Origin: Escherichia phage vB_EcoM_Goslar
DNA length: 64,000 nt
Strand: one strand, 5' to 3'
Sequence record: NC_048170.1
The translations under genes and the position numbers were made by a program. Of the stretch, positions 4,149-63,746 are shown piece by piece. The first letter of the stretch is position 1. The number at the start of each line of letters is the position of its first letter. The notes under the pieces were generated by a model. The model ran no database searches. It was not told where the DNA came from and was given only the letters and a program-made list of their open reading frames with translations.

Positions 4149-4180
4149 CATCCTCCCAACCCGTAAGGGAAGGGAGGATG
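4149..4180 (-). terminator. conserved intergenic stem-loop terminator
   Basis: catcctccc-aa-ccc-gtaa-ggg-aa-gggaggatg between convergent genes; minus-sense followed by UGGUUUUUAUGC. Confidence 0.55.
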
Positions 4181-15777: not shown

Positions 15778-15810
15778 CCTTCCTCCAACCCAACAGGGAA
15801 GGAGGAAGGG
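15778..15810 (-). terminator. conserved intergenic stem-loop terminator
   Basis: ccttcctcc-aa-ccc-aaca-ggg-aa-ggaggaagg directly after the stop of 15826..16719; minus-sense hairpin followed by UUUAUGUUUG. Confidence 0.6.
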
Positions 15811-15825
15811 AGAGCTTGATTTTAA

Positions 15826-16719
15826 TTAATCAGCAGTGTTATAACCGAATACTGCTTTACCGTAGGTGTGGGTACCGTTAGCTAATGACAGCACCAACAC
15901 ATGGTTGTACGTAGCGTTAACACCATTGTCGGTAGAACTGGTGGTAGCACCGTTATAGACAAAGGTAGCTGTTTGCAGATTGGCTTTCAGCTCGGTGATG
16001 ATCTCATCACTTACACCGGTCTGCTCTTTGATCAGCGTGGTCAGGTTACCTGCCAGGCTTTCATTGATCTTGGTTTCGTTATTGGTAATCCCCTGTAAAC
16101 CTGCAGTGTAGGTGCTGAAGTCTAACGGATAGGTTAACAGACGTGCTGACGTTTTGGTACCATCGCCTTCATCAACGTAGGTTAAGTTACCCAGGTTGGT
16201 AACCTTGATGATGTTAGCCAGATCCAGCGTAGTGTTATAAACTTTAACTTGAACAGAGCCATACCACGCCAACGAATCTTCTTTGGCTTCCAGGGTGATC
16301 GTCTGGATACCATGCTCGTTGAAGGTAACCGGATTAGATAACGTATCGGCTTTGATGTCTTTATCTTTATCCAGGAACTTCTCACCGGTCGGCGTGATCA
16401 TACCGTAGCGTTGAGCTACAAGGTCAACCACATCACCGATGGTGGTGTCAGCAGTAACGTTAACACGTACAGCGATTTTCTGGAACCACTTAGCCAGATC
16501 CAGACGATGGTAGGTAACATCGCGGTTATTGAAGTAAGGGGTACCTTCACCAGGGCTAAGCGTTAAAGTTGCGTCTGGAGCAGAATCACTTTTGGATTTA
16601 AGGACGTATTTAAGGTCGGTATATTTGAAGTTGGCACCAGTGTCAGTGTTGAGTTTGTTAATCTCATCAACGATAAGTTGCCAAGGTGTTTTTAAAGTAA
16701 GCGATACTTGAGTTGCCAT
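15826..16719 (-). CDS. virion-type protein, paralog family A (YxRxD and LAWxGSV motifs)
   Basis: Contains TYHRLDLAKWF and LAWYGSVQVKV shared with four other ORFs; optimal-codon-rich; SD GAGGT. Confidence 0.55.
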   Translation of the reverse strand: MATQVSLTLKTPWQLIVDEINKLNTDTGANFKYTDLKYVLKSKSDSAPDATLTLSPGEGTPYFNNRDVTYHRLDLAKWFQKIAVRVNVTADTTIGDVVDLVAQRYGMITPTGEKFLDKDKDIKADTLSNPVTFNEHGIQTITLEAKEDSLAWYGSVQVKVYNTTLDLANIIKVTNLGNLTYVDEGDGTKTSARLLTYPLDFSTYTAGLQGITNNETKINESLAGNLTTLIKEQTGVSDEIITELKANLQTATFVYNGATTSSTDNGVNATYNHVLVLSLANGTHTYGKAVFGYNTAD

Positions 16720-27745: not shown

Positions 27746-27777
27746 CCCTCCTCCAACCCGTAAGGGAAGGAGGAGGG
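27746..27777 (-). terminator. conserved intergenic stem-loop terminator
   Basis: ccctcctcc-aa-ccc-gtaa-ggg-aa-ggaggaggg; minus-sense hairpin followed by UUAUGUUUGG; sits between convergent genes. Confidence 0.6.
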
Positions 27778-27786
27778 AATATGCTG

Positions 27787-28692
27787 TTATGCTACATATA
27801 ACGTCAGATAACCGTCGATGAGCGTATTCATCACACTGAGCTGAAGTACGACAGCTTTACTAACATCTGTACGTACACCGAACGGTAGTGTTTTGAATTG
27901 CTCTGGATCGGCTATTACTTGCGCATTCTGCAAGTTGAGCGGTCCAGGCATTGCTGATAATACCCAGCGATCGTTGACCATAAGGCCGTCGATCTCTTCA
28001 GAGAGACCCAATTGCAGTGCGTTCATTTCTGCGATTAGTGCCTCCGATTGCGTATCGCCTGAGGTTAGCGTATACCCATCGGTAAGCGATGCCAGAACAC
28101 CAGCAGATACGAACCAGTTGTACGAAACAATAGCGCCTGGGAGTTTACTGCTATCTCGATCGATGATATAATTCAACCCAGCCAACATATTGTTGCGAAC
28201 GAGGTTGTTGAGGTCGTTATGTCCTGAGGTTAACTCAACAAGTAACTGACCAACCCATACTTGGTTACCGGGTTTAGGTGTTATCACAACCTGTATCGGT
28301 GACTTGGATTTATCCAGATCCGCGTCGACAATCTCGGTTTTGTTGAGAAGGATACCGTACGTCGATGCTAAGACAGGTAGGATCTCAGAGACCTTGGTTA
28401 GTGCATCTAAGGTTTCGATCTCGATAGGCCAGCGGTGCTGTCCGCCAGACCAAGTACCTAGTTTACCAAGATCGATGCGGTTATAATAGATGTCGACAGA
28501 GTTCACCAGCCCTGAACCCGGTTGGGGATGCACGGTTAACTTGCTGTTACGCTTGTACCCGGTGCTTTCAGAAGCCTCACCGATAACCAGTTTATCCAGC
28601 GTTACGCCTCGAGCATCGAAATCGCTATGCTTTCGAATCAGCCGAAAGAGGATTTCTTTCGATTCTAACCCTAGGATTTCACTGTACTCCAT
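27787..28692 (-). CDS. virion-type protein, paralog family A
   Basis: IYYNRIDLGKLGTW motif and overall similarity to 29609 and 30471 ORFs; SD AAGGGG. Confidence 0.5.
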   Translation of the reverse strand: MEYSEILGLESKEILFRLIRKHSDFDARGVTLDKLVIGEASESTGYKRNSKLTVHPQPGSGLVNSVDIYYNRIDLGKLGTWSGGQHRWPIEIETLDALTKVSEILPVLASTYGILLNKTEIVDADLDKSKSPIQVVITPKPGNQVWVGQLLVELTSGHNDLNNLVRNNMLAGLNYIIDRDSSKLPGAIVSYNWFVSAGVLASLTDGYTLTSGDTQSEALIAEMNALQLGLSEEIDGLMVNDRWVLSAMPGPLNLQNAQVIADPEQFKTLPFGVRTDVSKAVVLQLSVMNTLIDGYLTLYVA

Positions 28693-29608: not shown

Positions 29609-30460
29609 TCAGTTATATTGCATCAACAGGATACCGCCGTAGTTCGTGCAGTAATCTTGGCTAAGCGTAACGATAACAGCGTTAGCGAACGCAGGGTTAA
29701 CAGGATAACCCTGTGCGATAAGTTCTGTTGTTTTACCGGTTGCAAGCACGGTGGCTCCGTAAAGGTTGTTTTCGTCTTCACGGCCGTTATAAACCCATGG
29801 GGTTGGCGCAACGTTGTTGAATAAGCTAACCAATGCGCTTAAGTTGCCACCAACTTTTAACCCGGCGAGATCGGAACGGATAGCTGTACAGTCTATAGCG
29901 TAACTGTAGACCAATGCCTGGATACGATTTGCGGTGTAGTACGGGAAATTGAGACCGGTCATCACCGTGGACTTCATCATCCCCGCAATATCGCGTGCGC
30001 TATCGAGGAGGTAGAACGTGACACTTCCCGTCCAAGCCAATCCGGTTGTTTTCAACTCTACGGTGTGAGGGAACGGATATTCATCACCTCGTACAATCGG
30101 AGAATCGACGCAGCTATCCTGATCGATAACGATTCCGTACGTTGATTGAATCAGAGGGATAAGATCGTGCGTTGTTCTAACCCCGGCATCGATAGCAAGC
30201 TTCGGTTCCATTCCCAAGAAGAAGTCTTGAATAGGGATACGATCGTACCATACGTAGCTGCTTTCACGGTATTGTGCCGGTGTTACTGTTGCCGAAGGGG
30301 ATACCTTAGCGCGAGTGTTTCGGCTATACGCGTGGTTTCCGTTTTCAGCAACATCCGTGATATCAAGTGCATCGAAGTTAAAGTCGAAGTCAGGATTGGC
30401 TGCCTGAATAAGTTCAGCGACCAGTACTTTAGGACTTTTGTTTAACAATTTCTGACTCAT
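29609..30460 (-). CDS. virion-type protein, paralog family A
   Basis: YVWYDRIPIQDFFLG, LAWTGSVTFYLLDS, C-terminal DYCTNYGGILLMQYN; SD AAGGAA. Confidence 0.5.
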   Translation of the reverse strand: MSQKLLNKSPKVLVAELIQAANPDFDFNFDALDITDVAENGNHAYSRNTRAKVSPSATVTPAQYRESSYVWYDRIPIQDFFLGMEPKLAIDAGVRTTHDLIPLIQSTYGIVIDQDSCVDSPIVRGDEYPFPHTVELKTTGLAWTGSVTFYLLDSARDIAGMMKSTVMTGLNFPYYTANRIQALVYSYAIDCTAIRSDLAGLKVGGNLSALVSLFNNVAPTPWVYNGREDENNLYGATVLATGKTTELIAQGYPVNPAFANAVIVTLSQDYCTNYGGILLMQYN

Positions 30461-30470
30461 TGTTTATTCC

Positions 30471-31406
30471 TTAGCCTTGTTCTTCTGGAGAACGACCCTG
30501 GAGGCTTGCGGTATGTCCGTCGACGTTGTAATAGAAAATCAATGGACCGCCGACGGCAGTACAGTAGTTTTCATCCAGACCGATCTCGATACCGTATTGG
30601 TAACCCGCTCGTGCTGGAATACGTCCGCCTAACTCGCCGTTGAAAGCCACTTTAGCGTTATACAGGTTATACGGTGCTGCGTTGTCGTCTAATACCCAAC
30701 GATCGGCGGTCATTTCAGCCAGAAGATCGGCGACCACCACATCGCTAATGACGGTACCTGTTACCAGCGAAGCTAGCAACTCACCGTAATCAGAAGTATC
30801 GCGACTGTAACTGTAGATCTCACCGCTAGCGCGTACGCCCTGTCCGAAGAACTTAAGACCATCAAGCTCTTTGATCGCGATAATATCATCAAGATTCGGT
30901 ACACGCGATTTCATCAAGATACGAACACTTCCCGTCCAAGCCAGGCAGCTAGATACGACACGGAGCAATTGTCCGTTAACGGTATCCCAGTTAAGTTCGT
31001 CGTTGACAATTTCTTCCGCGGTAAGGCCAAGACCGAAACGTTCTTTGATGATAGGCCAGATATCACGCATCTTGGTGGCGTCTGGCGCATCGATAAGAAT
31101 AGGCGCTACGTTACGCAGATACGCACCGATATTGATACGATCGTAATACAGCGTCGTCGAACCTTCATAATCGTCTAACTCGGTAAGCTTAGCGGTTGCT
31201 GTCGCCGTAATCTGGGTGTCGCGCTCGTAGGCGCTTTGGTTGGTGGTTGGTGTTCCTAAAACCAATAATTCAGGGGTTAGAACATGCTCTCCGTTCTGAG
31301 GTGGGTTATCGTGGTTGATAAGACCATACACGAGATCGGATGAGGGTAAAGAGACGTCGACCGGGTAAAGTTCGGTGTCGTCAATAGTTGTTACCGTATC
31401 ACTCAC
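30471..31406 (-). CDS. virion-type protein, paralog family A
   Basis: TLYYDRINIGAYL, LAWTGSVRILMKS, C-terminal ENYCTAVGGPLIFYYN; track start is GTG without SD, second GTG at 31404-31406 has GGAGG 6 nt upstream. Confidence 0.5.
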   Translation of the reverse strand: MSDTVTTIDDTELYPVDVSLPSSDLVYGLINHDNPPQNGEHVLTPELLVLGTPTTNQSAYERDTQITATATAKLTELDDYEGSTTLYYDRINIGAYLRNVAPILIDAPDATKMRDIWPIIKERFGLGLTAEEIVNDELNWDTVNGQLLRVVSSCLAWTGSVRILMKSRVPNLDDIIAIKELDGLKFFGQGVRASGEIYSYSRDTSDYGELLASLVTGTVISDVVVADLLAEMTADRWVLDDNAAPYNLYNAKVAFNGELGGRIPARAGYQYGIEIGLDENYCTAVGGPLIFYYNVDGHTASLQGRSPEEQG

Positions 31407-31465
31407 GGTGACCTCCACGCCAGGAATTAATTAAAAAAGACTTTACGATTTGCAGCGCTATCACG

Positions 31466-37234: not shown

Positions 37235-39793
37235 TTACTGCTCTTCACGTTCCAGCAGATACTCGGAAGCGGTAATACCGTTTACCGTACGTACTGCTTT
37301 CAGACGAGTATCATCACTCAGAATCACGGTAACAGATTGCAGACCTTTTACTTTGGTTTCGAAGGTCTTGAACACCTGATCCAGCATACGAGCAATGCTT
37401 GGGTTGGTTGCAGCCGATGCGTGGGTGTAACCGCTTTGGTTCAGCTTCAGAATCTTGGCGTTGGTCGGTACGCGAACAACAACATGCGGACGCATCGCGA
37501 ATACGCTGTGATTGAACCAGTAAGCGTCGTTACTATCTTCGTCGGTAACGATGTCTGGATTAACACGCATATCCTCGACAGCCGCATCCGCCAAACGACG
37601 TTCGATTTCATCGGCGTCCAGAGAGCCATCTTTCTCCAGTTCTGCACGATACTCACTCATGGCAACCAGATGACGTTCACGATTCGCTGCGGATTTTTCG
37701 TGAGCGGCTTTCAGGTAGTCATGCATGTTGTACAGTTCTGCCATGGAAAGACGAATGTTCCACTGACCTTCGCCATCGCGATTGCAGTAGAGACACTTCA
37801 GCATGTTGACCCAGGTATAGTAGCAATTGGCGAATTCATCTTCAATGAACTTCTGGTCCATTTTAAGATCGTGAATCAGCCAACCGGACAGTTCTCCGAT
37901 ATCATCAACGAAGCTAGAGATGGTGGTTTCAGAGAAGTTCTTCGGTACGATACGTTTGATCAGCTTATTGACGTCTTTGGTCATGCTATCGTTCAGGAAA
38001 TGCCAGATACGCAGAGGAATGACATCTCGATACTGTTGCATGATCTGACGATAAGCTTTGATATCGTCGCTACGACCTTTATCAATAGACAACGCATCCA
38101 GGAATTCATGGATTGCATCCAGCTCTTTGTCGGTATAGGTTCCCAGATAGGAATTGACGGTGGCCAGGAATGCTAATGCGTCGTTTTGGTTGACGTCGGT
38201 GTTGGTCTGCTGAATGATCGCCACTGCAGCTTTAGTTTCAGCATCCTCAACGCTTGACGCTGCGATCGCGTCGGTGACGGTAAACAGTTTCATTTCGCGC
38301 TGCTCACCGACAACGATTGGCTCACGCTGAACCGGCTTGTTAAGACTAACGCGAACAACTTCTGCTTGCGCGATACGATCCAGTTTTGCCATTTCCTGCT
38401 CTGCCATACGACGAGCGGTTGGATCTGATTCAAGTTCGATGTATTCCACTTCTTCCTCCGTGAGGGATGTAATGTCAACAATGGTTTCATGAAGAATTCC
38501 GTTTTCGTCGATACGTGCTCGACGAGCGAAGTGCCTGAAGTCATACAACGTCGGCCAACGACTATTAGGTGCAAAGTCTTTGGCTTTCAGACGCATCTGC
38601 ATAAATTCTTCATGTTGAACAACACGACCGTAACGCTTAGCATCTTCGGTCGCATCAATTGGATTAACGGTCTTTGTTGCCGTAGCGGAACGAGCCGTAC
38701 GAACCGGTTCCGGTTTCACCTGCGCCGGTTCAGGTTGAACGGGTTTCTGCTGTCCAGCCTTAACATGCCATTCTGGCTCTTCGTACTGTTCAGCAAATTG
38801 CTCAGCCGCTGCAAAGATATCGTTGATACCACCAATATCTCCTTCAGGATTTGTCGAGTAAATCCGTGGTTGCGGTGCCTCGTAACGCGGCGCTGTAGCA
38901 GCAGGTGCCTCATCAACGATAGGATCATCATCACCGACATCATACAAACGGTTGAACGCACAATCCTTCGAATCAATGTACGATGGTGTTTGTGGTTGGA
39001 CAACCGTAGGCCGAGGTTGTGTGCCGTATCCTGGTGTTGTTGGAGCCATACCACGCATAACTGCTGGGTTAGGTTGGTATTGTGGTTGTGGGTAGGTTCC
39101 ACCATACATGGCGTACGCAGGCTGTTGTGGTTGACCATACCCGTTGCTAACCATCGCACTTGCTTGCGGCCCACGATAAGTCATCCCCATCTGCATCACC
39201 TGCTGCTTCAAACCACGTGACTTCTGCGCGATTTGCGCTAGGCTTCCGCTTTTATTCAGCTGCGTGTACTTATTCGCGGCTTCCGGGTTAATGCGTGATA
39301 ATTCAATCGCGCGATAATATTCCGGGTACTGATTCGGTTCAAAGAGCCACGTTACAAGATGATACAGCGCAACTGTACTCACGGCAGCAGAGACGATCTG
39401 GTCGTCGGACGCGTTCTGTGGCATCGGGTTGATGTAAGAGAACACGTTCCAACAACAGTCTTCAACAAGCGATTCCATCATCATATCGTTATTGGTATAA
39501 CGTGCGACGAACTCGGTTTGTATTTTGTCTTGCTGAGCGAAGTCTTTCAGGACATTAAAGATGGCTTGACGGATTTTGACGATCGTCGCTTCTTGGGTGA
39601 TGAAGTTATAGTTCTGCTGATATGAGGGTTGTTGGTATTGTGGTGGTTGATAGGCGTTATTCGGGTATGCGCCGTACGGCGATTGCTGATACTGTTGCTG
39701 ACGAACCTGTTCAGCCGCATAATTAATCGTGCTCGTATAAGGGTTTTCGCTATAGCCCATTTGTTGATACATGTTGTTACTGCCATTATACAT
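37235..39793 (-). CDS. large hypothetical protein with Q/Y/P/G-rich low-complexity segments
   Basis: 852-aa ORF, SD AAAGGA; N-terminal YQQSPYGAYPNNAYQPPQYQQPSYQQNY and internal GYGQPQQPAYAMYGGTYPQPQYQPNP. Confidence 0.5.
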   Translation of the reverse strand: MYNGSNNMYQQMGYSENPYTSTINYAAEQVRQQQYQQSPYGAYPNNAYQPPQYQQPSYQQNYNFITQEATIVKIRQAIFNVLKDFAQQDKIQTEFVARYTNNDMMMESLVEDCCWNVFSYINPMPQNASDDQIVSAAVSTVALYHLVTWLFEPNQYPEYYRAIELSRINPEAANKYTQLNKSGSLAQIAQKSRGLKQQVMQMGMTYRGPQASAMVSNGYGQPQQPAYAMYGGTYPQPQYQPNPAVMRGMAPTTPGYGTQPRPTVVQPQTPSYIDSKDCAFNRLYDVGDDDPIVDEAPAATAPRYEAPQPRIYSTNPEGDIGGINDIFAAAEQFAEQYEEPEWHVKAGQQKPVQPEPAQVKPEPVRTARSATATKTVNPIDATEDAKRYGRVVQHEEFMQMRLKAKDFAPNSRWPTLYDFRHFARRARIDENGILHETIVDITSLTEEEVEYIELESDPTARRMAEQEMAKLDRIAQAEVVRVSLNKPVQREPIVVGEQREMKLFTVTDAIAASSVEDAETKAAVAIIQQTNTDVNQNDALAFLATVNSYLGTYTDKELDAIHEFLDALSIDKGRSDDIKAYRQIMQQYRDVIPLRIWHFLNDSMTKDVNKLIKRIVPKNFSETTISSFVDDIGELSGWLIHDLKMDQKFIEDEFANCYYTWVNMLKCLYCNRDGEGQWNIRLSMAELYNMHDYLKAAHEKSAANRERHLVAMSEYRAELEKDGSLDADEIERRLADAAVEDMRVNPDIVTDEDSNDAYWFNHSVFAMRPHVVVRVPTNAKILKLNQSGYTHASAATNPSIARMLDQVFKTFETKVKGLQSVTVILSDDTRLKAVRTVNGITASEYLLEREEQ

Positions 39794-48106: not shown

Positions 48107-48138
48107 CCCTCCTCCAACCCGTAAGGGAAGGAGGAGGG
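48107..48138 (-). terminator. conserved intergenic stem-loop terminator
   Basis: ccctcctcc-aa-ccc-gtaa-ggg-aa-ggaggaggg; on the minus strand followed within ~10 nt by a U9 tract; between convergent genes. Confidence 0.6.
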
Positions 48139-49775: not shown

Positions 49776-49807
49776 CCCTCTCCCAACCCGTAAGGGAAGG
49801 GAGAGGG
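49776..49807 (-). terminator. conserved intergenic stem-loop terminator
   Basis: ccctctccc-aa-ccc-gtaa-ggg-aa-gggagaggg; compensatory stem changes relative to other copies; followed by CUUAUGCUG. Confidence 0.6.
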
Positions 49808-51787: not shown

Positions 51788-53100
51788 GGTTCAATAGCTC
51801 CTGCTCGTAACAGCATAATAACGAACGGTGTGAAATAATAACGATCTAGCGGAGAAAGCAACGGTATTGCGTCGACCATCTGTTTCAGTGCTGGATGACT
51901 GATTGCTTTCTCGTCGACCATATCACGTACCATACTCTCAATGATCGTCATTGGGGCTTGGTTGCGATAGAAAGCCTCTGTGAAAACATAGTACGGATCG
52001 TCCGCTACCGATGGAAACAACGGAACGCCGTCATACTCCATCGATGTAAGGTTGGTCACCAACGGATTTGTCGGTGGTGTGTTTTCAGGTACAGCCAACT
52101 CTTTACCGACGTCTTCACCGAGCGACGTGGTCGCAGGCCACATACAGAACCGCGCACCACTAAAACGAATCCCGCCTGCAGCCGGGTATTGATAGAAACG
52201 CTTTGTTGACAACAGTGTGAATTTCACCGTCAACCGCGCCTCGTCTTCCCGACGTCCATCCATGACCCATTCAAAGACAGAAATCGCATTCGCTTCCTGG
52301 TTATCGTCTACGTTAAGGCGTCCAAAGTTCCATGATGGCTTTCCTTCAAGCGACGACCATAATTTCGTAAACGCGTTAACGCACCAGGGATCGTAGGTTG
52401 CAGCATCTTGACCAGGAACAAGCAGTGTGTTGAGTTCACGGCTGTAGAATTCATGGTAATACGCGTGACAAAGCCCCAGCGCACGACGGAGATAATCATA
52501 CTTACGATTGTATTTCTCCGTTGCCATTACGGGATGTTTTCCGTGCTTTAACTGGTCTTGGTCGTACAGTGTATCCTCAACGATTTTCGCTTCCAGTTCG
52601 ATAAGCTGTTTTTCGTCAAGAATACGTTGGAAGGAAATATCACATTCGTAAGCCGGTGCTAAGCTGATGTTCTTCGGCGTGATTCGGGTGATTGTGTACA
52701 CCGCGATACGATGATCGAGACCGGAGATTAACAGCATGTTACCTAAAAGAGGAACCGATACCGCCGGAAGTATACACGTACCCTCTGATTGAAAACGCGC
52801 AGTACCGTTGTCGTACGATGGCGTCAATGACGACATTAACTTGATAGGGTAATGTCTGATGCGACGGTACTGCTGTTCAGCGATGTCACGGTTAGCTTGA
52901 AAACTGCTTTGTTCATCATCGCGACCGAGAATCTGTTCGTAATAATCGCATTCTACGGAATAACCGGATGCGTAATTCACTAACCCGATTTGACTATTGT
53001 ATTGCTCATCCACCACCGCAGAACGATAAACATCGTCGCGAGCCTTCGCGGGTTGTTGGGGGTTGATGTTGGGTTTCGCGGGCTTCTTAGCGAGCGCCAT
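51784..53100 (-). CDS. hypothetical protein
   Basis: 438-aa ORF, SD TAGGAG. Confidence 0.5.
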   Translation of the reverse strand: MALAKKPAKPNINPQQPAKARDDVYRSAVVDEQYNSQIGLVNYASGYSVECDYYEQILGRDDEQSSFQANRDIAEQQYRRIRHYPIKLMSSLTPSYDNGTARFQSEGTCILPAVSVPLLGNMLLISGLDHRIAVYTITRITPKNISLAPAYECDISFQRILDEKQLIELEAKIVEDTLYDQDQLKHGKHPVMATEKYNRKYDYLRRALGLCHAYYHEFYSRELNTLLVPGQDAATYDPWCVNAFTKLWSSLEGKPSWNFGRLNVDDNQEANAISVFEWVMDGRREDEARLTVKFTLLSTKRFYQYPAAGGIRFSGARFCMWPATTSLGEDVGKELAVPENTPPTNPLVTNLTSMEYDGVPLFPSVADDPYYVFTEAFYRNQAPMTIIESMVRDMVDEKAISHPALKQMVDAIPLLSPLDRYYFTPFVIMLLRAGAIEP

Positions 53101-54652
53101 AGCGTTTTACTCCTACGATGGTACCGACAAGAATTCTCGGTACGAATAAACTACGATGTTTGAACCATGAAGCTGTTGTTGGGATACGTTTGATGGCTTC
53201 GATAAGCCCGATTAGCGTATAGCACCCCCGACTGTTCTTCTTAGGCCAGTACTTTTTATCTAGACCTAATACTGCAAACAGTTCATCCACCAGATTGGGA
53301 TAACAACACAACGCTTCAAGTGTTTCAACCTGTAACTGACTTAAATCTAACAGTATCGCTAGACGAACGTGGTAATCACTCCGTAAGTCTAACGGATCTT
53401 TCGCTTCAAGATCGCCAACGTCGGTTAATGTCCACGCGTCTCTTGCGTAGCGGTATTTGCCCTTCCAAACCTCAAGGAAAAAAGGAGACTGGTAATGACA
53501 TTTTGACCATTCCGGGTACTCGCGGAACCATCGAACAAGATCGGGATGGAATTCACCTTCTTCGGCTAACGAGTCCAACGTCACCAATAGGTTAGGTTGT
53601 TCGGGATCGATAGCAAGCAGCGCGGTGAAAAGCGTGCTTGATGGAAGCTCGGTTTCCACGCTCGATGGAGGCAACCATTCATCCAAATCGGGATACCGAT
53701 ACGCTTGAATCGACGCACCCTGCTCGGGCAAGAACGAATCACGAAGAATGTCCTGATACTGCACCACCATACCACCACGACGCGCACGGGATTTATCGCG
53801 CACCGAGAGGCTCGGTTTGTATAGGTACTCTTCGGGGAGTATCTGTTGGTGTACTTGAACCGGATACCGTGCTACGATGTGTGTTGGTGTGTCGTACGTG
53901 TAACGGTAAGAGAAGGTTGCGTTGTATGAAGAACTGTTCTCATTCTTCTCGGGTTTCGGAGCGTCGGTGAAATCAAATTGACCAGAGATCTCTTCTTGCA
54001 TTTCCCTGATAACCAATTTAACGCTCTTACCGTCACCTGCAACCGTCGTCATGGTGGTTGCACGGTTGTCGAACCCGTCTCTAAGATACTCACTGAATTT
54101 ATCCCCATAACCCGCGACAGCCTCTCGGTGGGTGTGGATAACTTTTAACAACATGAGAAACTGTGTAGGGATCGCATAGCTGTATTCGGCACTGAGAAAC
54201 GCGGCAACATGCTGACTTGTGAGCAAGCGTTTCATGTCGTACCACCAACGTTCGGCGGTGACCTGATCCTCGAACCGTTTGGTGATCTGCATGGTCGCAA
54301 CCATCGTACTGTAAACAGGTACTAGCGATACGCCAAGGTTACGGTCTTCAAATACTGGAAGACTGTTTCGTTTGTAAACGGTATCGTACATGGACGCCTG
54401 TTCTTCAGGGACAATGTTAAGCTCAATTTGGATGAACCCGTCAGCAGGCCCTTTTACATCCTGATCAACAACTTGCGGCGGTTGCTCGTTCGCAGCGCTC
54501 ATTTTAGCGTGAAGCGCTTCCCCTCGAAAAAGAATGTTCTCCCGATTATAATCCCACCCGCAAAGCTCGCTGATCTGCCGTAACACCGCGATTGCAACCG
54601 GACGTGTTACCGTCGCGTATACGTCATTGATTTTTCGATCAAGTTTAGGCAT
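53087..54652 (-). CDS. hypothetical protein
   Basis: Track ORF starts at GTG 54679; ATG at 54650-54652 preferred (SD GAGGA). Confidence 0.45.
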   Translation of the reverse strand: MPKLDRKINDVYATVTRPVAIAVLRQISELCGWDYNRENILFRGEALHAKMSAANEQPPQVVDQDVKGPADGFIQIELNIVPEEQASMYDTVYKRNSLPVFEDRNLGVSLVPVYSTMVATMQITKRFEDQVTAERWWYDMKRLLTSQHVAAFLSAEYSYAIPTQFLMLLKVIHTHREAVAGYGDKFSEYLRDGFDNRATTMTTVAGDGKSVKLVIREMQEEISGQFDFTDAPKPEKNENSSSYNATFSYRYTYDTPTHIVARYPVQVHQQILPEEYLYKPSLSVRDKSRARRGGMVVQYQDILRDSFLPEQGASIQAYRYPDLDEWLPPSSVETELPSSTLFTALLAIDPEQPNLLVTLDSLAEEGEFHPDLVRWFREYPEWSKCHYQSPFFLEVWKGKYRYARDAWTLTDVGDLEAKDPLDLRSDYHVRLAILLDLSQLQVETLEALCCYPNLVDELFAVLGLDKKYWPKKNSRGCYTLIGLIEAIKRIPTTASWFKHRSLFVPRILVGTIVGVKRYGAR

Positions 54653-55028
54653 CGATGTCGTCCTCGCTAATTTCCTCACCTCCTTGTTGTCGATATCCGG
54701 TATAATGAATCAGACTGCTCTGTAGAAGCTCTTTAACGAGCCCTAGACGCGTTTTATCTGTTTCATTGGACGTTTCCATTAATGTTTCTATTTCGTTGTT
54801 TAAAACAGCGTATAGCGCTTCTAACGGCAATCCTTGGATGATTGGTTTGTTGGTACCTTCCGGTAGTGCCGCAACAGGAATCTGCACGACGGTTTCATGT
54901 GAGGTATGTGGGTTGATACGGCAAATATACATACCGGGTACTGAATGTCGCGGGCACGCCGCTACCAAGCATGTCTGTTGCTGCGCACCGTTAAGTGCGA
55001 GTGAAAGAAATTTTGCTTCACGTGTCAT
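54645..55028 (-). CDS. hypothetical protein
   Basis: 127-aa ORF. Confidence 0.45.
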   Translation of the reverse strand: MTREAKFLSLALNGAQQQTCLVAACPRHSVPGMYICRINPHTSHETVVQIPVAALPEGTNKPIIQGLPLEALYAVLNNEIETLMETSNETDKTRLGLVKELLQSSLIHYTGYRQQGGEEISEDDIDA

Positions 55029-55116: not shown

Positions 55117-58100
55117 TTACTTGTAGGCACCGCAATGTGCTTTGATGAGGAAAAGCACCGCTTGCATCGGTTTATTGAACTGTTGCCATAACGTCAATGC
55201 AGGATGGAACAACCAATCTTCCAGGCCAAGAACAATACCGTAGTTAACGACATTATTAACATCGTTCTCAACGTTGAGTTCGCTGTCCAGGAATTTATCG
55301 ATTGAACGCAGGGTCTGCATGGCGTTGTCAGCAATAAGCCAAGCTTCATGTGCTTCACGAGCCGCACGCAGCACTGCCTCCAGTTCGCTGATAGTAGCTA
55401 CCGGTAATTCCTCACTGGTGAGGTCGTCAGAAACCGTAAACTGGCGATTGATACCGGTGTAGATCCACTGCATCAGTTTCGCTGCTTCCTCGTTCGGGTT
55501 GTTGCGCGTTGTCGCATAAGTCGCGCTCACCTTCACGATGTGCGTTTCACCAAGATACGCTTTGGACCCAACACCTTTACGATCGCTGTCTTTCCACGGT
55601 TGTACGGTAGCGACCATGAGCTTATCCCATTTCTGAATAGGAATACGCTTCAGACCAACAACCGATCCGGCGGATGTTTCGGACTGGTTGCTCTTCCGCA
55701 CTTCGCTGAGCTCACGATCGATAGCAACGATTAATTCACGCGTCATGTTACCGAGCATTTTGATTTCACCCAACGCAGCGATGAGCTTCTTCACATCGGT
55801 AACAGGTTCACCACCGATGGTAAGATGACGGATGAAACGTTTCAGAATAATCCGTTCCGCTGCTGGATTACCGCGACGCGCTTTGGCCAGCGCTTGCTGT
55901 GTTTCGGCGAACAGCTTATCCCATGGAGCCGTAGCGGCGGTATAGTAACGGTGGTTGGTTTCAATCCAGTTACCGATACGGTTGACCGCGCTCTTAACGG
56001 TATCCATGAATCCTTCCATCGCAATTTCGGTAGCTTCCACGTTACCCTGGAAGTTATCAGGACCGATCTCGCGTGCCGCTACCAGAATACCTTCCACCGC
56101 ACTCACCGCATGACGACCGATAGCCAGATTTCGCTGCGCTTCTTCAGCACGCTCAACGAATTCCACTACCGCAGGATCGTCGACGATTTCCGCCTCGGCA
56201 ACAGCACGCGTACCCGCATCACCTTCCAGCGTTTCGATGGTGACAACCGGATCGTTTTCACCGGCAACATCCTGGTACTCTTCCTGTTTGAGATCGCCGT
56301 TATCAGCCGCTGCGACAGCGGTGAGTATACGGACGGTAACATCACCGAGTTCTTTTGCAGTGAATCCGTAGACGGTGCATGCTGTTGTCGCAAAGTTCAT
56401 CAGTGTGCGTGTGCGTTTAACGATGTAGCCAACATCATAATCGCTACCGCTCTTATCGATGTCACGGATTAACCGTTCAGCTGTCTCCTGAAGTTGTGTA
56501 GCTGCTTTCAGAAGGTCTTCGTCAAACAGTTTCGTTGACGCATCGATCAGCATATCAACGCTAACGTTAGACGGTACAGCATCATCCTGCTGTTTCATGG
56601 CGCTAAGTTCGTCACGGAACTTACGAATACCGTCTAAAGCGGCGTCAGCGGTATGTCCGAACGCAGCCACGCCTGACATTGTTGTTGCCGTCAGCATGTC
56701 TGAATCTGCGTTTGGACTTTCGCCTTCTTTAAGATTCTTCAACTGGTCGAAGAACTTACGAGATGCTTCAGCGATACGTTTACTGTCTTTGACCGCGTTT
56801 ACGATCTTATCGACAGATTTAGCGTCGTTCGCGAGCAGAGTATCCAGTTTATTCCACTCAACGTCAACCTTCTTGGTATCGCTTGGTGGTGGAAGCAGTT
56901 TCATCACTGGCGTTGTACGTTGTTCTTTGGTGAGCTTATCGGCCTTCTCATCGATTTTCTTTTTACTAACACCGAAGAGTTTTCTTAGGCGTGCCACGAT
57001 TGCTTTTAAGAACTTCGCGACCGCTTCGTAAACCGATTTCAGAATCTGTTTAAAGCGACCTGGCTGCTTTTCCCCGTCTTCCAGATTGAGATCGCTATTC
57101 AGTGCGACATCAAGCTGTTTGTACGATTCCATGATGTATTCGTCTTTGATTTCAGGACGAATCTCGAAGCTTTCCATCGGACCTTCAGCCGGACGGAATT
57201 CCATTTTCAGTTCGCCTTGCAGGGTAGGGTCGATAATAGCGATAGCTTCACCCTGACCATCAGCGTTAAAGCGTTCAGCGTAACGAGTACGGCGAACAAT
57301 AACACTCTTATCCCCATCAAGACGACGTACCACCATGGTGCCAGGAATGTACGGTTGTTCTGTTTCAATGACGGTTACATCTGCTTCACCTTCGCCGAGA
57401 ATAACCGATGCGCGCTGTTCAACAACAGGAACATCTAATACGCCACGGGCTTCCAGCTCTTGACGAATTTCGAACGACTCTTGTTTCAGATCTTCATCTT
57501 CTTCGTTTTCGTCGTCTTCATCATCGTCACCTTTGGTGTTTTCATTACCCTCGGTGGTTGTGGTGTTTGTAGCAGCAGCGTCGGCGTCTGTGTTGGTAGG
57601 TTCTTCGGACGCAGGTTCGGTGGTGCCGTCCTCGGCAGGCGTTTCGTCAGCGTTATCGACGTCAACATCACCTTGCAGCTCCGTTTCTTGAGCAACTGCT
57701 TCGGCTTTCTGCTCGCCGGTATTACCATCATTAGCGTCGACAACAGGTTGTTCGTCAGCGACGGTATCTTCAACCTTTTCTACTTTCTCCACGACACGTT
57801 TAATCACGGTGACTTTGATGGGTTCTTCCGTTGTTTTGGTTTCTGGCGTCACCTCGGCTGCCGCAGCCGCTGTTTCAGCAACAGGTTCTGCTTTTTCCGG
57901 TTCGACGACATTACCTTTAACACCTTCGGTGGTTTCTGCAGGTTGCGCTGCCTGTTCGATTTGCGCCGGATTGGTTGGATCGATGGCGTTAGCCGCATCC
58001 TGAATCTTGTTCTTCAGGTTGTCGCGGTCAGCGTTAACGGTCGGGTCGTTGGTCACTTTCGGTGCCGGTGTTTCGGTCGGCGCGTTTGCCGGATACGGGT

Positions 58101-58494
58101 TCTTCGGCTCCTCGCCAGGTGCGGTCGGTACCGCGATCAGAACGAACGGCTGAACGTCGTTACCGTCTTCCATGGTTACGCCGCCGTTGCTTGGCGTGAA
58201 ACGGATTCGCAAACTACCATCGATAGGACGGGTCACAATAACAGCACGTACGACATCCTCGCCGTTTTCATCTGTGCTACGAATCACGCGAACAGCGTCA
58301 TCAACGGTAGCCCCTTCCTCGAGCGTATCTGATTCGATCGTCGCTTCGATGCTGTCTGGCCGTGCCGCTGTAGGTAATGCGATCACTTGCTCTTCTTTAT
58401 CAGTAGAAAGCGTTGCTTTGACTTCGATAGGTGTATCGCCGCTTTCCAGGTTAAGATGCGACTTACGCATCAGATCAGCTAACGATTTTTTCAT
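55117..58494 (-). CDS. large hypothetical virion-type protein with acidic low-complexity region
   Basis: 1125 aa; central Thr/Glu/Asp/Ala-rich disordered segment including DDDEDDENEEDEDL; internally duplicated ~80-aa unit (ESFEIR motifs). Confidence 0.5.
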   Translation of the reverse strand: MKKSLADLMRKSHLNLESGDTPIEVKATLSTDKEEQVIALPTAARPDSIEATIESDTLEEGATVDDAVRVIRSTDENGEDVVRAVIVTRPIDGSLRIRFTPSNGGVTMEDGNDVQPFVLIAVPTAPGEEPKNPYPANAPTETPAPKVTNDPTVNADRDNLKNKIQDAANAIDPTNPAQIEQAAQPAETTEGVKGNVVEPEKAEPVAETAAAAAEVTPETKTTEEPIKVTVIKRVVEKVEKVEDTVADEQPVVDANDGNTGEQKAEAVAQETELQGDVDVDNADETPAEDGTTEPASEEPTNTDADAAATNTTTTEGNENTKGDDDEDDENEEDEDLKQESFEIRQELEARGVLDVPVVEQRASVILGEGEADVTVIETEQPYIPGTMVVRRLDGDKSVIVRRTRYAERFNADGQGEAIAIIDPTLQGELKMEFRPAEGPMESFEIRPEIKDEYIMESYKQLDVALNSDLNLEDGEKQPGRFKQILKSVYEAVAKFLKAIVARLRKLFGVSKKKIDEKADKLTKEQRTTPVMKLLPPPSDTKKVDVEWNKLDTLLANDAKSVDKIVNAVKDSKRIAEASRKFFDQLKNLKEGESPNADSDMLTATTMSGVAAFGHTADAALDGIRKFRDELSAMKQQDDAVPSNVSVDMLIDASTKLFDEDLLKAATQLQETAERLIRDIDKSGSDYDVGYIVKRTRTLMNFATTACTVYGFTAKELGDVTVRILTAVAAADNGDLKQEEYQDVAGENDPVVTIETLEGDAGTRAVAEAEIVDDPAVVEFVERAEEAQRNLAIGRHAVSAVEGILVAAREIGPDNFQGNVEATEIAMEGFMDTVKSAVNRIGNWIETNHRYYTAATAPWDKLFAETQQALAKARRGNPAAERIILKRFIRHLTIGGEPVTDVKKLIAALGEIKMLGNMTRELIVAIDRELSEVRKSNQSETSAGSVVGLKRIPIQKWDKLMVATVQPWKDSDRKGVGSKAYLGETHIVKVSATYATTRNNPNEEAAKLMQWIYTGINRQFTVSDDLTSEELPVATISELEAVLRAAREAHEAWLIADNAMQTLRSIDKFLDSELNVENDVNNVVNYGIVLGLEDWLFHPALTLWQQFNKPMQAVLFLIKAHCGAYK

Positions 58495-58509: not shown

Positions 58510-59616
58510 TTAAAAGTAATATTTCAGCGCCTCGCGAGAGACATCAAGCATAGCCGCTGTTGAATTCGTAAAGAACTCGGCATAGCCCACAAGCGGCACC
58601 TTGATCCACGCGGTATACGCTGTAAGGTATCGAGAAAGGGCTACCATAGCATCATCAGAAGCAGTAGTAACTGACAACTGACCTTGTTGACGATAAACGT
58701 CGTTAAGTTTTGCTTGTAGATTCCCTGCGATTTCGAGTAACTCGTTGGCGTACTTTTTACGATGGTAACTAACCAGCAAATCAACACCCGTATTTACAGA
58801 CTCGAGTAGAAGACCAACTTGTTCTAATGTTGGCATTGTAACCACCATATCCCGTTCAACGGATGGGACATCCTGGACTTCAAACCGTGCGGATTGAATG
58901 GCGAGGGACTGTTGAATTGATCCAGAACCTGAAGCGGTAACTTGATCGAGTCGTAGCATACGGTTGCCCAGTAACGTCACGTTGACGAGTTTCGATTCGT
59001 TCAGCGTACTGTAGACTTTATGCAATAACGTATACGCATCACGGTTAATCACATCGATTAATGCGGTATCCGTCTGTTTTAAGATAATGTCGAGTGCTCT
59101 ATCTAACGTATTAGCGAACTGCTTAAAATCATCACGGAACGACGAAGACAAGAGATATTCAGCGATCGCTAAATTCTGTTTGTATAACGTATTCCCGGTT
59201 GTGAAATCGAACCCAAAACTGTTCCCATACCGTAGGTGCGGAGCCAACGTCGACGAAGCTTCGAAGCTTTGCGCGATAGGTTTACGACCAACGGCTTTTG
59301 TGTAGTGACGGCGGATGTTGCTGAGTTCGAGCTGTAGTGCGCGACTACGATCGATAAACCGTGCGATAAACGCGGTAATGTTCCGCAACGTTGTCCAGAT
59401 TGCATCGATGATAGCTTTGATGATCTTCATCGCAAGTTGATCGTACGATTCCATTGTGAGGAGATCAGCACTTTCCGTGGTATAACTGGTTGATAGCATA
59501 CCACCCGCTTGCTGATAAATAAGCTGGTGAATTTGTCGTTGCGTTGCTGTCTCTGGCACAGGTAATGTTTTTAACAAGCTTAACGCTTGAATCTGTCCAT
59601 CATTGGTCTGCAGCAT
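58510..59616 (-). CDS. paralog family B protein (tandem array member)
   Basis: Track ORF 58510..59667; ATG at 59614-59616 has SD TGAGGAA; shares the helical core LTMESYDQLAMKIIKAIIDAIW with the three downstream ORFs. Confidence 0.45.
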   Translation of the reverse strand: MLQTNDGQIQALSLLKTLPVPETATQRQIHQLIYQQAGGMLSTSYTTESADLLTMESYDQLAMKIIKAIIDAIWTTLRNITAFIARFIDRSRALQLELSNIRRHYTKAVGRKPIAQSFEASSTLAPHLRYGNSFGFDFTTGNTLYKQNLAIAEYLLSSSFRDDFKQFANTLDRALDIILKQTDTALIDVINRDAYTLLHKVYSTLNESKLVNVTLLGNRMLRLDQVTASGSGSIQQSLAIQSARFEVQDVPSVERDMVVTMPTLEQVGLLLESVNTGVDLLVSYHRKKYANELLEIAGNLQAKLNDVYRQQGQLSVTTASDDAMVALSRYLTAYTAWIKVPLVGYAEFFTNSTAAMLDVSREALKYYF

Positions 59617-60901
59617 TGCTGGTTTCCTCAAGTTCGAGATGCGCGTCAAGATAATCATTAAGACCATCGATGACGTCGCAGACAGTTAACAGGAATCGGG
59701 CAAAAGCAACCGCCTGGAAGCCGACGACGTTACGCGCGATACCCACGCGTTGAACGATAGCGGATGCTGCGGTATCGTTATTGCCCATCTGTTGTAGCAA
59801 ACGTTCATACGGTTGAATCCATTCGTCCTGGTCGGCAAGGCTTGCTTCAAGACAACGTTTAAATTCCAACTGTCGTAGCGTAGACCATAACGTACTTAAT
59901 GCGTTGATGATCGCGTTGGTTCCGTCGATAACATCGTTTAACGGTAAGAAACGGAATCCGTCTTTTGCTGATTGGAAAGGTGCGGCTTCCCACACAACGC
60001 TGAACTGCGTTCCTGTTGCGTCTTCGATGTTGTGTAATTTAAGATAGGAAGCACCAACAGGAACGTCAACGACCAGATCGTCTGTTCCGGTAGGTGTTAA
60101 CGGCTTCTCGCATAACGCCTCGTTGATGGCCTCGAGAATATTCTCCCAACAGGCTTCGTTTTCCGCAGCGATACCTTCTTTGTTATCCGCTGATGGTGCT
60201 TTTAGTAGCTGCATTAATAACGGATCAAGTTGACGGTGCCATGCTGCGAGGATTCCTGTGTTCGTTACGATGTTTTCTGCGGTTTGTCGTAAATCAGCAA
60301 TACTGCTTACCGCACCGCCTTTCGGATGGAGATATCGCCAGTTGTAGGGAAAGTTCTCCCAGAATGCGTTATCTTCATCGACGTCGTATTCGGAAATAGT
60401 TTTCAACGCAGCCGCTTTCTTTAATAACGGCTTCACCTGACGAACGAATCGACGATAACAGCGATTGCAGATATCGATCGCATAGCGGTATAATTCGTTC
60501 ATGTAAAGCCATAATGCACGGGTTGCTTCTTTTGCTGTCTTGTCAAAACTTTCCATGTTCAGACTCATCCCGCTGGAAGTTTCCTCTTCCAGACCCTCGA
60601 TGATGTGGTTTGGATCCATCCCCATCCCGGCTGCTGCGGTCGATGCGATATGTTTGATGGTGTTGATATCGCGTTCCTCGACTTCAGCCATGTTTGGGAC
60701 AATATCCAGCCTGAGTTTATTTAATGTTTGAAGGTGTTGTTCACCTTCTTTCATCGCCGTGTTTGTTTCGTCGATTGAGTGAAACTGATTCTCAATATTA
60801 CTGGCATCGAGAATGTTGCCAGCGATACCGAACGATTCTACAGGTTCATCATCAATCCCTTGAAACAACGATGTCATGGGTTGTTGTAACACGTTTTCCA
60901 T
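59600..60901 (-). CDS. paralog family B protein
   Basis: Conserved IKHIASTAAAGMGMD and ALWLYMNELY blocks; SD TAGGAG. Confidence 0.5.
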   Translation of the reverse strand: MENVLQQPMTSLFQGIDDEPVESFGIAGNILDASNIENQFHSIDETNTAMKEGEQHLQTLNKLRLDIVPNMAEVEERDINTIKHIASTAAAGMGMDPNHIIEGLEEETSSGMSLNMESFDKTAKEATRALWLYMNELYRYAIDICNRCYRRFVRQVKPLLKKAAALKTISEYDVDEDNAFWENFPYNWRYLHPKGGAVSSIADLRQTAENIVTNTGILAAWHRQLDPLLMQLLKAPSADNKEGIAAENEACWENILEAINEALCEKPLTPTGTDDLVVDVPVGASYLKLHNIEDATGTQFSVVWEAAPFQSAKDGFRFLPLNDVIDGTNAIINALSTLWSTLRQLEFKRCLEASLADQDEWIQPYERLLQQMGNNDTAASAIVQRVGIARNVVGFQAVAFARFLLTVCDVIDGLNDYLDAHLELEETSNAADQ

Positions 60902-61008: not shown

Positions 61009-61041
61009 CCTTCCTCCAACCCGTAAGGGAAGGAGGAAGGG
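61009..61041 (-). terminator. conserved intergenic stem-loop terminator
   Basis: ccttcctcc-aa-ccc-gtaa-ggg-aa-ggaggaagg; minus-sense followed by UUUUAUGGCG. Confidence 0.6.
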
Positions 61042-62349: not shown

Positions 62350-63666
62350 TTAACCTTTGGTATAAGCGTTAACGAGAGTGTTGATAAATGAAGTCAGTGC
62401 GCGAAGATACTGGTAAGCGAATTGGTTTTCAATACGGTTCTCTTTACCGCAAAGCAGAATCGCACGCTTAACGAGTTTAGGATAGATCTCGACATACGGT
62501 TGGTAGCTTGCATCAAAATTCTGCTCGTTGAAGCGTTTCATGGTGATTTCCTGGATACGCTCCATGGTGCGAATTTTATTGCGAGAGAATATCTCAGAGA
62601 AAGCACGTCCGCGTTTTGTTACCATCAACAAATCTTTCGCGAACGTCAGTTGTCGAACGCTACGTAATTCGTCAGGTGTTGGCAGGACATACGTTTCTGG
62701 ATCGTTATCCCATTCAACATCTTCAACGATAATATCCAAGTCGAGGTAACGTTTAACAGCATCGATGATGTTGTCTTTTGACGCATCGAATTCTTTCAAG
62801 AAGACTGCGCCGTTGATGTAGCGGATGCGTTTCCCAGAAACTGTTGGGGTGATAACATCAGCACCTTCCACGGAACCGCGATTTTCCAGTGTCGATTTGA
62901 CAGCGTGCAAGAAAGACAGATAATCAACAGGAAGTTTTTCAACCTTATCTAAATGGAAGTCGATGATGTTTAATCCTAACCCATCAATAACTGAATAGCC
63001 GTCCGATTTAAGGAACATCTGATTGAAGGTATCGATGTTGCTTTTCAGCGTGTCTACGCCACCAACGCTGTTACGGTTAGGGAAAAGTGTCCGCCACTCC
63101 GCTTTAAACGCAACCTCTTTATTTTCCTCGTATTTGCCTTTAGGCATTTGTTCGAGGTCTGCAACGGCTTTCTGAAAATTGCGCGTCTCGTCGTAAACAA
63201 GACGGGTAAGCTTCTCGAAGGCTGCTGCCAAGGTCAGGGCAATATCAACAATGATATCCCAGATCTTTTTCATGGCTTTTACAACGGTGTCCTTAAACCC
63301 CTCAACAACCAAAGCTTCTCCAACCTCAACACGATCGGTTGGCGTCAGCAATGCTTCGGAGGGTAGACCCAGAGCAATCGACGCGGATTCTTGAACGTTA
63401 CGAACCAACGCAACATCACTGTAGTTAGCCGATTCGATAGTCGGAGCAACATCAAAACTGATTTCCCGTAATGCAGCAACAGCAGGGAAAGCACGATCAA
63501 GCGCATCTTCATGTTCGTCGATTGCCGCCAAACGTAATTCGACGCCATCGGCATCGATGACTTCAGCGGCAGGCTCCACAGCAAGCGCCTCAGCAACAAT
63601 AGGATCTTTTTCAAACGCCTCAAGGCTGATATCGCCTTGGGTCGCAAATAGCGGTATGTGTACCAT
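62350..63666 (-). CDS. paralog family B protein
   Basis: VRNVQESASIALGL and VEVGEALVVEGFKDTVVKAMKKIWDII blocks; track start is TTG, ATG at 63664-63666 has GGAG spacing 9. Confidence 0.5.
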   Translation of the reverse strand: MVHIPLFATQGDISLEAFEKDPIVAEALAVEPAAEVIDADGVELRLAAIDEHEDALDRAFPAVAALREISFDVAPTIESANYSDVALVRNVQESASIALGLPSEALLTPTDRVEVGEALVVEGFKDTVVKAMKKIWDIIVDIALTLAAAFEKLTRLVYDETRNFQKAVADLEQMPKGKYEENKEVAFKAEWRTLFPNRNSVGGVDTLKSNIDTFNQMFLKSDGYSVIDGLGLNIIDFHLDKVEKLPVDYLSFLHAVKSTLENRGSVEGADVITPTVSGKRIRYINGAVFLKEFDASKDNIIDAVKRYLDLDIIVEDVEWDNDPETYVLPTPDELRSVRQLTFAKDLLMVTKRGRAFSEIFSRNKIRTMERIQEITMKRFNEQNFDASYQPYVEIYPKLVKRAILLCGKENRIENQFAYQYLRALTSFINTLVNAYTKG

Positions 63667-63714
63667 GTGTTGTCTCCAGTAATGATTCAAAAGATAAACC
63701 TGAGCGGCATAGAA

Positions 63715-63746
63715 CCCTCTCCCAACCCGTGAGGGAAGGGAGAGGG
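63715..63746 (-). terminator. conserved intergenic stem-loop terminator (GTGA loop)
   Basis: ccctctccc-aa-ccc-gtga-ggg-aa-gggagaggg; minus-sense followed by UUCUAUGCCG. Confidence 0.6.

Follow-up and report, generated by a model that had tools for sequence, protein, structure and literature searches.

The window analysed here, a stretch of 64,000 nucleotides (nt) from sequence record NC_048170.1, contains on its minus strand a gene (55117..58494) for a protein of 1125 amino acids (aa), hereafter the target, which is probably a precursor made of several modules that give rise to internal head proteins (inner-body or ejection proteins), and the counterpart of phiKZ gp97 in position and architecture. 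Its gene is the last in an operon of inner-body proteins of the PF12699 family and, in this phiKZ-like jumbo phage, takes the place of gp97. The original prediction, made from the sequence alone, had called the same open reading frame (ORF); it is a real one, with an ATG start and a Shine-Dalgarno-like ribosome-binding site, AAGAGGA, ~10 nt upstream. The parts of the target are listed below from the N- to the C-terminus, with the evidence for each in brackets (AF2, AlphaFold2; dN/dS, ratio of nonsynonymous to synonymous substitution rates; a slash within a motif marks the putative cut).

55117..58494, minus strand: whole ORF of 1125 aa with ATG start, putative inner-body/ejection protein precursor in the phiKZ gp97 position
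58444..58494, minus strand: aa 1-17, basic N-terminal leader, candidate targeting peptide with the first candidate cleavage site, ending LNLE/S (LNLESGD conserved)
58168..58443, minus strand: aa 18-109, beta-rich unit 1, ending TME/DG (AF2 strands of low confidence, sister-lineage homology)
57478..58167, minus strand: aa 110-339, acidic disordered putative pro-region, net charge -44, ending DLKQE/SF (composition, dN/dS, conserved islands)
57505..57669, minus strand: aa 276-330, hypervariable indel-prone acidic filler inside the pro-region (identity, insertions and deletions, dN/dS)
57172..57477, minus strand: aa 340-441, beta-rich unit 2, bracketed by two ESFEIR motifs (sister-lineage homology)
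56281..57126, minus strand: aa 457-738, helical module A, predicted to yield a mature piece of 31.1 kDa, net charge 0 (AF2 model; bounded by YIME/SY and DLKQE/EY)
56356..56901, minus strand: aa ~532-713, allelic cassette in the core of module A (blastn, identity, clusters)
56014..56280, minus strand: aa 739-827, acidic linker or putative second pro-region, net charge -16, ending IAME/GF (composition, motif)
55120..56013, minus strand: aa 828-1125, C-terminal domain, PF12699-like and predicted to be helical, with a predicted mature piece of 33.5 kDa, net charge +2 (near-threshold PF12699 match, homology to protein P0120)

Close homologues of the target (~107 proteins of 1109-1134 aa, 80-98% identical) are encoded on contigs of 236-250 kb, which stem from sequencing projects on Salmonella enterica and E. 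coli as well as from metagenomes; near-identical contigs recur among them. A sister lineage (P0110-P0119, 1089-1670 aa) is ~30% identical to the target and has the same leader, unit 1, acidic region, unit 2, and C-terminal domain (E from 2e-5 to 3e-42). No match to the target was found in 50,697 phage records (megablast and tblastn), in complete E. coli genomes and PLSDB plasmids (megablast), in Pfam and PHROGs (full-length protein), or among PDB sequences (phmmer).

The window encodes a phiKZ-type major capsid protein (PhiKZ_MCP, PF25620, E=5e-218), at most ~34% identical to any of the phage records, as well as head-tail joining proteins and a divergent helicase resembling DnaB. The structural head genes of phiKZ, gp89-gp97, end with gp97 and are followed directly by gp98. 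In the window, the homologue of phiKZ gp98 (53087-54679) is the next gene but one downstream of the target, and four paralogous genes are located upstream of it; two of these match PF12699 weakly, and orthologues of the upstream paralogues in locus L003, on a related 259-kb contig, score 59-61 bits on PF12699. The gene order around the target is kept in L003 and in another related locus, L004. As the gp98 homologue, the upstream PF12699 paralogues, and the gene order all match phiKZ, the target is assigned to the gp97 slot. The gene between the target and the gp98 homologue (54645-55028, minus strand) encodes 127 aa and overlaps the start of the gp98 homologue; it has no family match, its sister-lineage counterpart has 124 aa (E=7e-11), and an ORF intervenes at this place in the window, L003, and L004.

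The C-terminal ~300 aa are treated here as a very divergent PF12699-type domain, because of their position, a near-threshold profile match, and a transitive link through P0120. Scanned separately, aa 741-1125 match PF12699 with 26.4 bits (E=5.2e-6) over profile positions 72-320 of 387, the gathering cut-off of the family being 27 bits; the match begins within the linker, at aa 807, which corresponds to profile position 72. A profile of the C-terminal part, searched against 1.84 billion representative proteins, retrieved only its own two lineages and P0120 (E=8e-5). The latter aligns with the target from the common EGFMD motif onward (BLASTP E=3e-5), and its C-terminus scores 35.7 bits on PF12699, above the cut-off. 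P0120 (locus L011, 5772-10568) is a two-module protein with an acidic linker; its gene adjoins that of a 720-aa protein with a SUKH/SMI1 domain, and the contig also has a capsid gene of the phiKZ type. For aa 774-1124 of the target, AF2 predicts mainly helices, at a predicted local distance difference test (pLDDT) score mostly <50; the full-length model is of low confidence (mean pLDDT 37) and too poor for a fold search.

The chain is punctuated by seven glutamate motifs of the form x-[M/Q/L]-E/[S/G/D/E], which are near-invariant in 108 sequences, even beside variable segments:

E17/S18: LNLE/S (LNLESGD in 107 of 108 sequences)
E109/D110: TME/DG (VTMEDGN in 108 of 108)
E339/S340: LKQE/SF
E441/S442: PME/SF
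E456/S457: IME/SY
E738/E739: LKQE/EY
E827/G828: AME/GF (IAMEGFM in 108 of 108)

In the sister lineage, LKME/S stands at the position of the leader end, and several of the motifs recur at equivalent junctions. In the target, E[SG][FY] occurs four times, with 0.41 expected from shuffled sequences (p=0.002), and ME[SGD] also four times, with 0.38 expected (p=0.0004); these p-values are optimistic, because the patterns were chosen after the sequence had been inspected. The same type of motif begins the PF12699 domain in the window paralogues and in phiKZ gp93, gp96, and gp97. The published motifs of the prohead protease (gp175 type) are A-X-E in SPN3US and S/A/G-X-E in phiKZ, and the phiKZ sequences G-M-E/S (gp93) and A-M-E/D (gp97) fit the latter rule (PMC5694885). 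Cleavage has been mapped in phiKZ gp93 at E13/S14 and in gp162 at E17/R18 and E137/D138 (PMC11297242), and the propeptides of these phages hold multiple cleavage sites (PMC9026906, PMC10052503). When the target is divided at the seven motifs, all net negative charge falls into the would-be pro-pieces (-10, -44, -8, -3, and -16), and the two predicted mature pieces are uncharged (31.1 kDa, net 0, and 33.5 kDa, net +2), their sizes being close to those of mature SPN3US gp53 and gp54 (31.5 and 31.9 kDa; PMC5694885). We infer that the glutamate junctions would be cleavage sites of the prohead protease, and the target a precursor.

Apart from the motif statistics, several results weigh against this interpretation. 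First, the strict published motif is fitted by IAME/G (E827) alone, the other six sites deviating at position P3 (T, K, P, and I are among the residues found there), and a prohead protease gene was not found among 30 larger ORFs scanned against PHROGs, the scan covering about half of the ORFs of at least 100 aa. Second, the PF12699 score of aa 741-1125 is 0.6 bits under the gathering threshold, and the full-length protein does not match the family. Third, comparisons with phiKZ gp97 and with a set of PF12699-type proteins were negative: the target gave no match to gp97 in a search against gp89-gp98 (phmmer --max), and hhalign assigned the C-terminal profile a probability of 0.1% against the gp97 C-terminus and of 0.6% against a hand-made alignment of eight PF12699-type proteins, the latter alignment being poor (26% column identity). 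Fourth, module A has no relation to PF12699 detectable by Pfam scan or hhalign. Finally, aa 126-275 of the acidic region evolve at a pairwise dN/dS of 0.02-0.10, which is more constraint than mere filler would need.

The deviation of six of the seven sites from the published motifs also speaks for an unlikely alternative, in which the target undergoes no internal processing and is one large multi-domain head protein, the ME[SG][FY] motifs being conserved starts of duplicated or fused helical modules. Since the motif stands at the start of the PF12699 match in several paralogues, common ancestry could explain its recurrence, and 42 head proteins of SPN3US are uncleaved (PMC10052503). However, the motifs also occur where no helical module comes next (E17/S18, E109/D110, and E339/S340), the charge partitions exactly at them, and in phiKZ and SPN3US cleavage of the PF12699 proteins takes place at the corresponding position (PMC5694885, PMC11297242). 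Should the target not be processed as proposed, it would simply be a large divergent head protein.

The remaining alternatives concern the acidic stretch. The original prediction placed a T/E/D/A/P-rich region of ~300 aa in the centre of the protein; the composition and DDDEDDENEEDEDL (aa 323-336) stand, but the stretch measures ~210-260 aa and lies in the N-terminal third. T, E, D, A, and P make up 62% of aa 126-338, with 57 D+E against 16 K+R (net -41), an isoelectric point of 4.05, and one aromatic residue. The most acidic 100-aa segment among the long ORFs of the window is found here (net -34, the next best being -27). Disorder, which the prediction had proposed, agrees with the AF2 model of low confidence built from an 18-sequence alignment, where aa 121-385 have pLDDT 20-30 and are almost devoid of secondary structure. 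Most of the region is under strong purifying selection, as given above for aa 126-275; it includes the islands KNPYPANAPTE and VVDANDGNTGEQKAE, which are common to the target and the sister lineage (E=1e-12). The most acidic part, aa 276-330, has a pairwise dN/dS of 0.2-0.5, a mean pairwise identity of 0.68 (108 sequences), and insertions and deletions after aa 280, 306, 315, and 325. In related phages such propeptides are cut into pieces, which mostly leave the head (PMC10052503, PMC9026906), and the acidic stretch of the target looks like a cleavable pro-region of this kind rather than the DNA mimic that had been suggested.

It is quite unlikely that the acidic region stays in the virion and is injected with the DNA as a mimic or polyanionic decoy against DNA-binding host defences. 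Its charge, net -41 over 213 aa, is what suggests mimicry, and we found nothing beyond it that is specific to a mimic; purifying selection on aa 126-275 and the islands shared with a ~30% identical lineage do indicate that the sequence matters. Ocr and other known DNA mimics are folded and hold their charges in a fixed array. The acidic region, being Pro/Thr-rich and predicted to be disordered, is unlike these: it gave no Pfam, PHROG, or PDB match, and neither a sequence match to known mimics of the Ocr/ArdA type nor a rigid carboxylate array was found, aa 121-385 being unstructured in the low-confidence model. It is also located on the propeptide side, upstream of the conserved protease-type motifs. 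The family counterpart, phiKZ gp97, is ejected (10.1101/2022.09.17.508391), but the phiKZ ejection experiments used C-terminal tags and are therefore uninformative on the N-terminal acidic part.

Retention of the acidic region in the head as a structural polyanion, where it would order the packed DNA or store ejection energy by acting as spacer or counter-charge, is very unlikely. The purifying selection on aa 126-275 would fit it, and T4 keeps acidic internal peptides derived from core proteins; SPN3US heads, too, retain some fragments of propeptides (PMC10052503). Against this stands the finding that the most acidic part, aa 276-330, is the least constrained (indels, dN/dS 0.2-0.5). The gene position and the PF12699 link ruled out a surface protein of tail-fibre or collagen-like type.

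On the reading of the target as a cleavable precursor, the beta-rich units delimit the acidic pro-region on both sides. AF2 predicts strands in unit 1 (36-38, 46-54, 68-74, 80-86, and 94-101) with low confidence; this unit is homologous to the N-terminus of the sister lineage (E=2e-5), and unit 2 to a sister-lineage unit placed after the helical modules (E=1e-10). The original prediction had the acidic stretch flanked by two copies of a ~80-aa unit, each with an ESFEIR-type motif. Of this, a weak similarity between units 1 and 2 survives: when their profiles, each built from both lineages, were compared, P was 0.002 over 81 columns at a probability of 13.6%, five control comparisons giving P of 0.1-0.8. 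The self-alignment that had been proposed as a check did not bear the duplication out, as self-BLAST returned only the identity match, and Smith-Waterman alignment of aa 1-130 with aa 336-465 scored 41 (z=1.7), a value reached by 72 of 1000 shuffles. No repeat was found at the DNA level, which rules out a recent tandem duplication. The placement of ESFEIR proved incorrect: there are just two copies, at aa 339-344 and 441-446, which bracket unit 2 and thus come after the acidic stretch, and none in unit 1 (aa ~18-109), which ends in TMEDG. The repeat is not significant by itself, because some exact 6-mer repeat was present in 309 of 5000 composition-preserving shuffles (6%). Both copies look like recurring motifs of module junctions, not parts of a duplicated domain. 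Comparison of the propeptides of the neighbouring paralogues with the beta-rich units and with the linker (aa 739-827) was not significant.

Module A has a highly variable core. Modelled alone by AF2, it forms an all-helical bundle (pLDDT 70). It has no match in Pfam, and a Foldseek search of the model against BFVD and PDB gave none at E<=1e-3, the template modelling (TM) scores being ~0.25-0.3 with generic helical bundles. Comparisons by hhalign among module A, the C-terminal domain, the modules of the sister lineage, the neighbouring paralogues, and phiKZ proteins gave only weak matches, none extending beyond the first helix that follows the junction motif (best probability 38%). At the DNA level, the window and L004 are collinear with 92-96% identity across the ~15-kb locus, save for 545 nt (56354-56898) that have no blastn match. 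The module A cores of four relatives share 25-33% identity with that of the target, while the N-terminus, unit 2, linker, and C-terminal domain are 93-100% identical; the value for the core is 25-27% where its flanks have 97-99% identity. In the 108 sequences, the mean pairwise identity of the latter four parts is 97-99%, and that of the module A core (aa 531-695) is 0.77; the core sequences fall into seven clusters at 90% identity and into three at 50%, those of the N- and C-terminal parts into a single cluster each. Some alleles are mosaic combinations of sub-blocks. Pairwise dN/dS of the core (four DNA loci compared) is 0.03 within one allele class and saturated between classes; therefore, the core is not changing rapidly at present, and the cassette consists of old alleles that recombination has moved. 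As the core is variable and swappable, module A may be the part that meets the host.

The sister lineage varies in another way. It has one, two, or three mutually paralogous helical modules of ~290 aa in tandem (E from 1e-10 to 1e-42), with total lengths of 1089, ~1375, and ~1668 aa, respectively; the lineage includes a gene of L003 (10001-14128). These modules are placed before unit 2, whereas module A of the target follows it, and the two show no similarity beyond the first helix.

A tentative route from synthesis to infection can be outlined by analogy with phiKZ, where virions are rich in PF12699 proteins, gp97 among them, which undergo proteolysis and are ejected together with the DNA, gp97 being deletable (10.1101/2022.09.17.508391; 10.1101/2024.03.24.586471). 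The N-terminal pieces of phiKZ gp93 and gp162 line the inner capsid surface after cleavage, with strand pairing to the capsid protein, and the helix-rich parts are free (PMC11297242). Made late in infection, the target would enter the prohead, where the leader and the beta-rich segments may dock it at the inner capsid surface in the way of these N-terminal pieces. The acidic disordered pro-region could keep the cargo soluble and fill space in the DNA-free prohead. The prohead protease would then cut after E17, E109, E339, E441, E456, E738, and E827, and the acidic pieces would be degraded or expelled while DNA enters. The helical modules of ~31 and ~33.5 kDa would remain in the head and be ejected with the genome. 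That the protein would be injected along with the genome, as suggested earlier, agrees with the gene position and the family, and is reasonable for the C-terminal modules.

A bolder version of this scheme is possible, though we regard it as doubtful. The target could be a natural cargo-delivery polyprotein, with a conserved chassis (leader, capsid-binding beta units, pro-region, and PF12699 domain) that carries between one and three helical modules, each exchangeable and with protease sites on its flanks. Recombination, together with selection from host immunity of a Juk-like type that senses ejected inner-body proteins, would keep the core of module A as deeply diverged alleles, and the acidic islands would be a specific docking signal, not filler.

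The role of the PF12699 proteins injected by chimalliviruses has been called a key unsolved mystery (10.64898/2026.04.21.720040). The natural variation described here (module swap, one to three modules, and a conserved acidic region) could be used to address it, as it points to a host-facing part as opposed to an assembly part; it also suggests a possible place for insertion of foreign cargo in jumbo-phage delivery.

Several other features of the window were noted. A conserved stem-loop with the core CCTTCCCTTACGGGTTGG is present in eight copies (0.04 expected), almost always on the coding (minus) strand:

1-18, 4156-4173, 15785-15802, 27753-27770, 48114-48131, 49783-49800, 61016-61033, 63722-63739: stem-loop copies

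Three intergenic copies (49783, 61016, and 63722) were aligned: one of them has compensatory changes in the stem CCCTCTCCC/GGGAGAGGG, and TATG comes after the stem in all three. The arrangement could be a terminator followed by a phiKZ-type late promoter, whose core we take to be TATG. The program-called starts of two ORFs, 58510-59667 and 62350-63690 (both minus strand), are probably too far upstream: the products have 385 and 446 aa, those of their L004 orthologues 368 and 438 aa, and the 385-aa ORF overlaps the previous gene by 68 nt. An 852-aa ORF (37235-39793, minus strand) adjoins the DNA polymerase gene; it has no PHROG match, and its sole Pfam signal is a weak match to a Cas9 C-terminal domain, below the cut-off (E=0.0017). 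A virion structural family, phrog_1037, is represented by four paralogues (15826-16719, 27787-28692, 29609-30460, and 30471-31418, minus strand), and two paralogous repeat-rich proteins (18462-20510 and 24197-26350, minus strand) match virion structural (phrog_2163) and tail or tail-fibre PHROGs.

Among known proteins, the closest in layout is phiKZ gp97 (816 aa), which has a hyper-acidic N-terminus of ~500 aa rich in E/D/T/A/V/P. As with the target, whole gp97 does not match PF12699, and its C-terminus scanned alone does (38.5 bits). Phabio gp143 (905 aa) occupies the gp97 position and has a similar charge layout, the hyper-acidic N-termini of the two proteins spanning 450-550 aa. Both resemble the target in having a near-neutral C-terminal part of ~300 aa and an x-M/L-E/D/G-Y/F motif at the start of the domain. 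In the target, too, an acidic N-terminus is combined with a PF12699-like C-terminus, and the gene precedes the gp98 homologue, with the 127-aa ORF intervening. There is, however, no direct sequence similarity to gp97, the acidic region is shorter (~230 against ~500 aa), and the two beta-rich units and the additional helical module of ~280 aa without a PF12699 signal have no equivalent in gp97.

The operon position, a C-terminal domain of ~31-34 kDa (predicted to be helix-rich in the target), acidic N-terminal pro-regions (putative in the target), and glutamate-specific junction motifs are shared with the PF12699 (phiKZ_IP) proteins phiKZ gp93/95/162, SPN3US gp53/54, and Goslar gp53-58 (PMC5694885; 10.64898/2026.04.21.720040), a family members of which are known in phiKZ, SPN3US, and Goslar to be present in virions and ejected (10.1101/2022.09.17.508391; 10.64898/2026.04.21.720040). 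Unlike the usual members, the target is ~2-3 times longer, has several modules per chain, and belongs to a very isolated family. Its N-terminus resembles that of gp162N and of gp93 (residues 14-84) in layout only: a leader cut (in the target, putatively) at about E13-E17 is followed by a segment of ~70-120 aa up to a second glutamate site. As gp162N is an internal duplication of a gp93-like segment (PMC11297242), the two motif-bounded beta-rich units of the target recall it, again in layout only, the strand predictions being of low confidence.

The internal proteins IPI, IPII, and IPIII of T4 are analogous to the proposed model: a cleavable N-terminal signal brings them into the head, the prohead protease cuts them behind Glu, and they leave with the DNA on ejection. 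Their mature parts are poorly conserved between related phages, a pattern interpreted as an arms race against host defences (PMC9026906), and the module A cassette is a parallel to it. However, they are not homologous to the target, being small, basic, single-module proteins with 10-residue targeting sequences; the T4-type sequence (L/I)-X-E is not found at the end of the target leader, L-N-L-E17, which has N at P3. The target is probably a divergent multi-module variant of the gp97-type inner-body/ejection proteins of chimalliviruses, to which it and its sister lineage add an allelic cassette, variation in module copy number, and a constrained acidic region.

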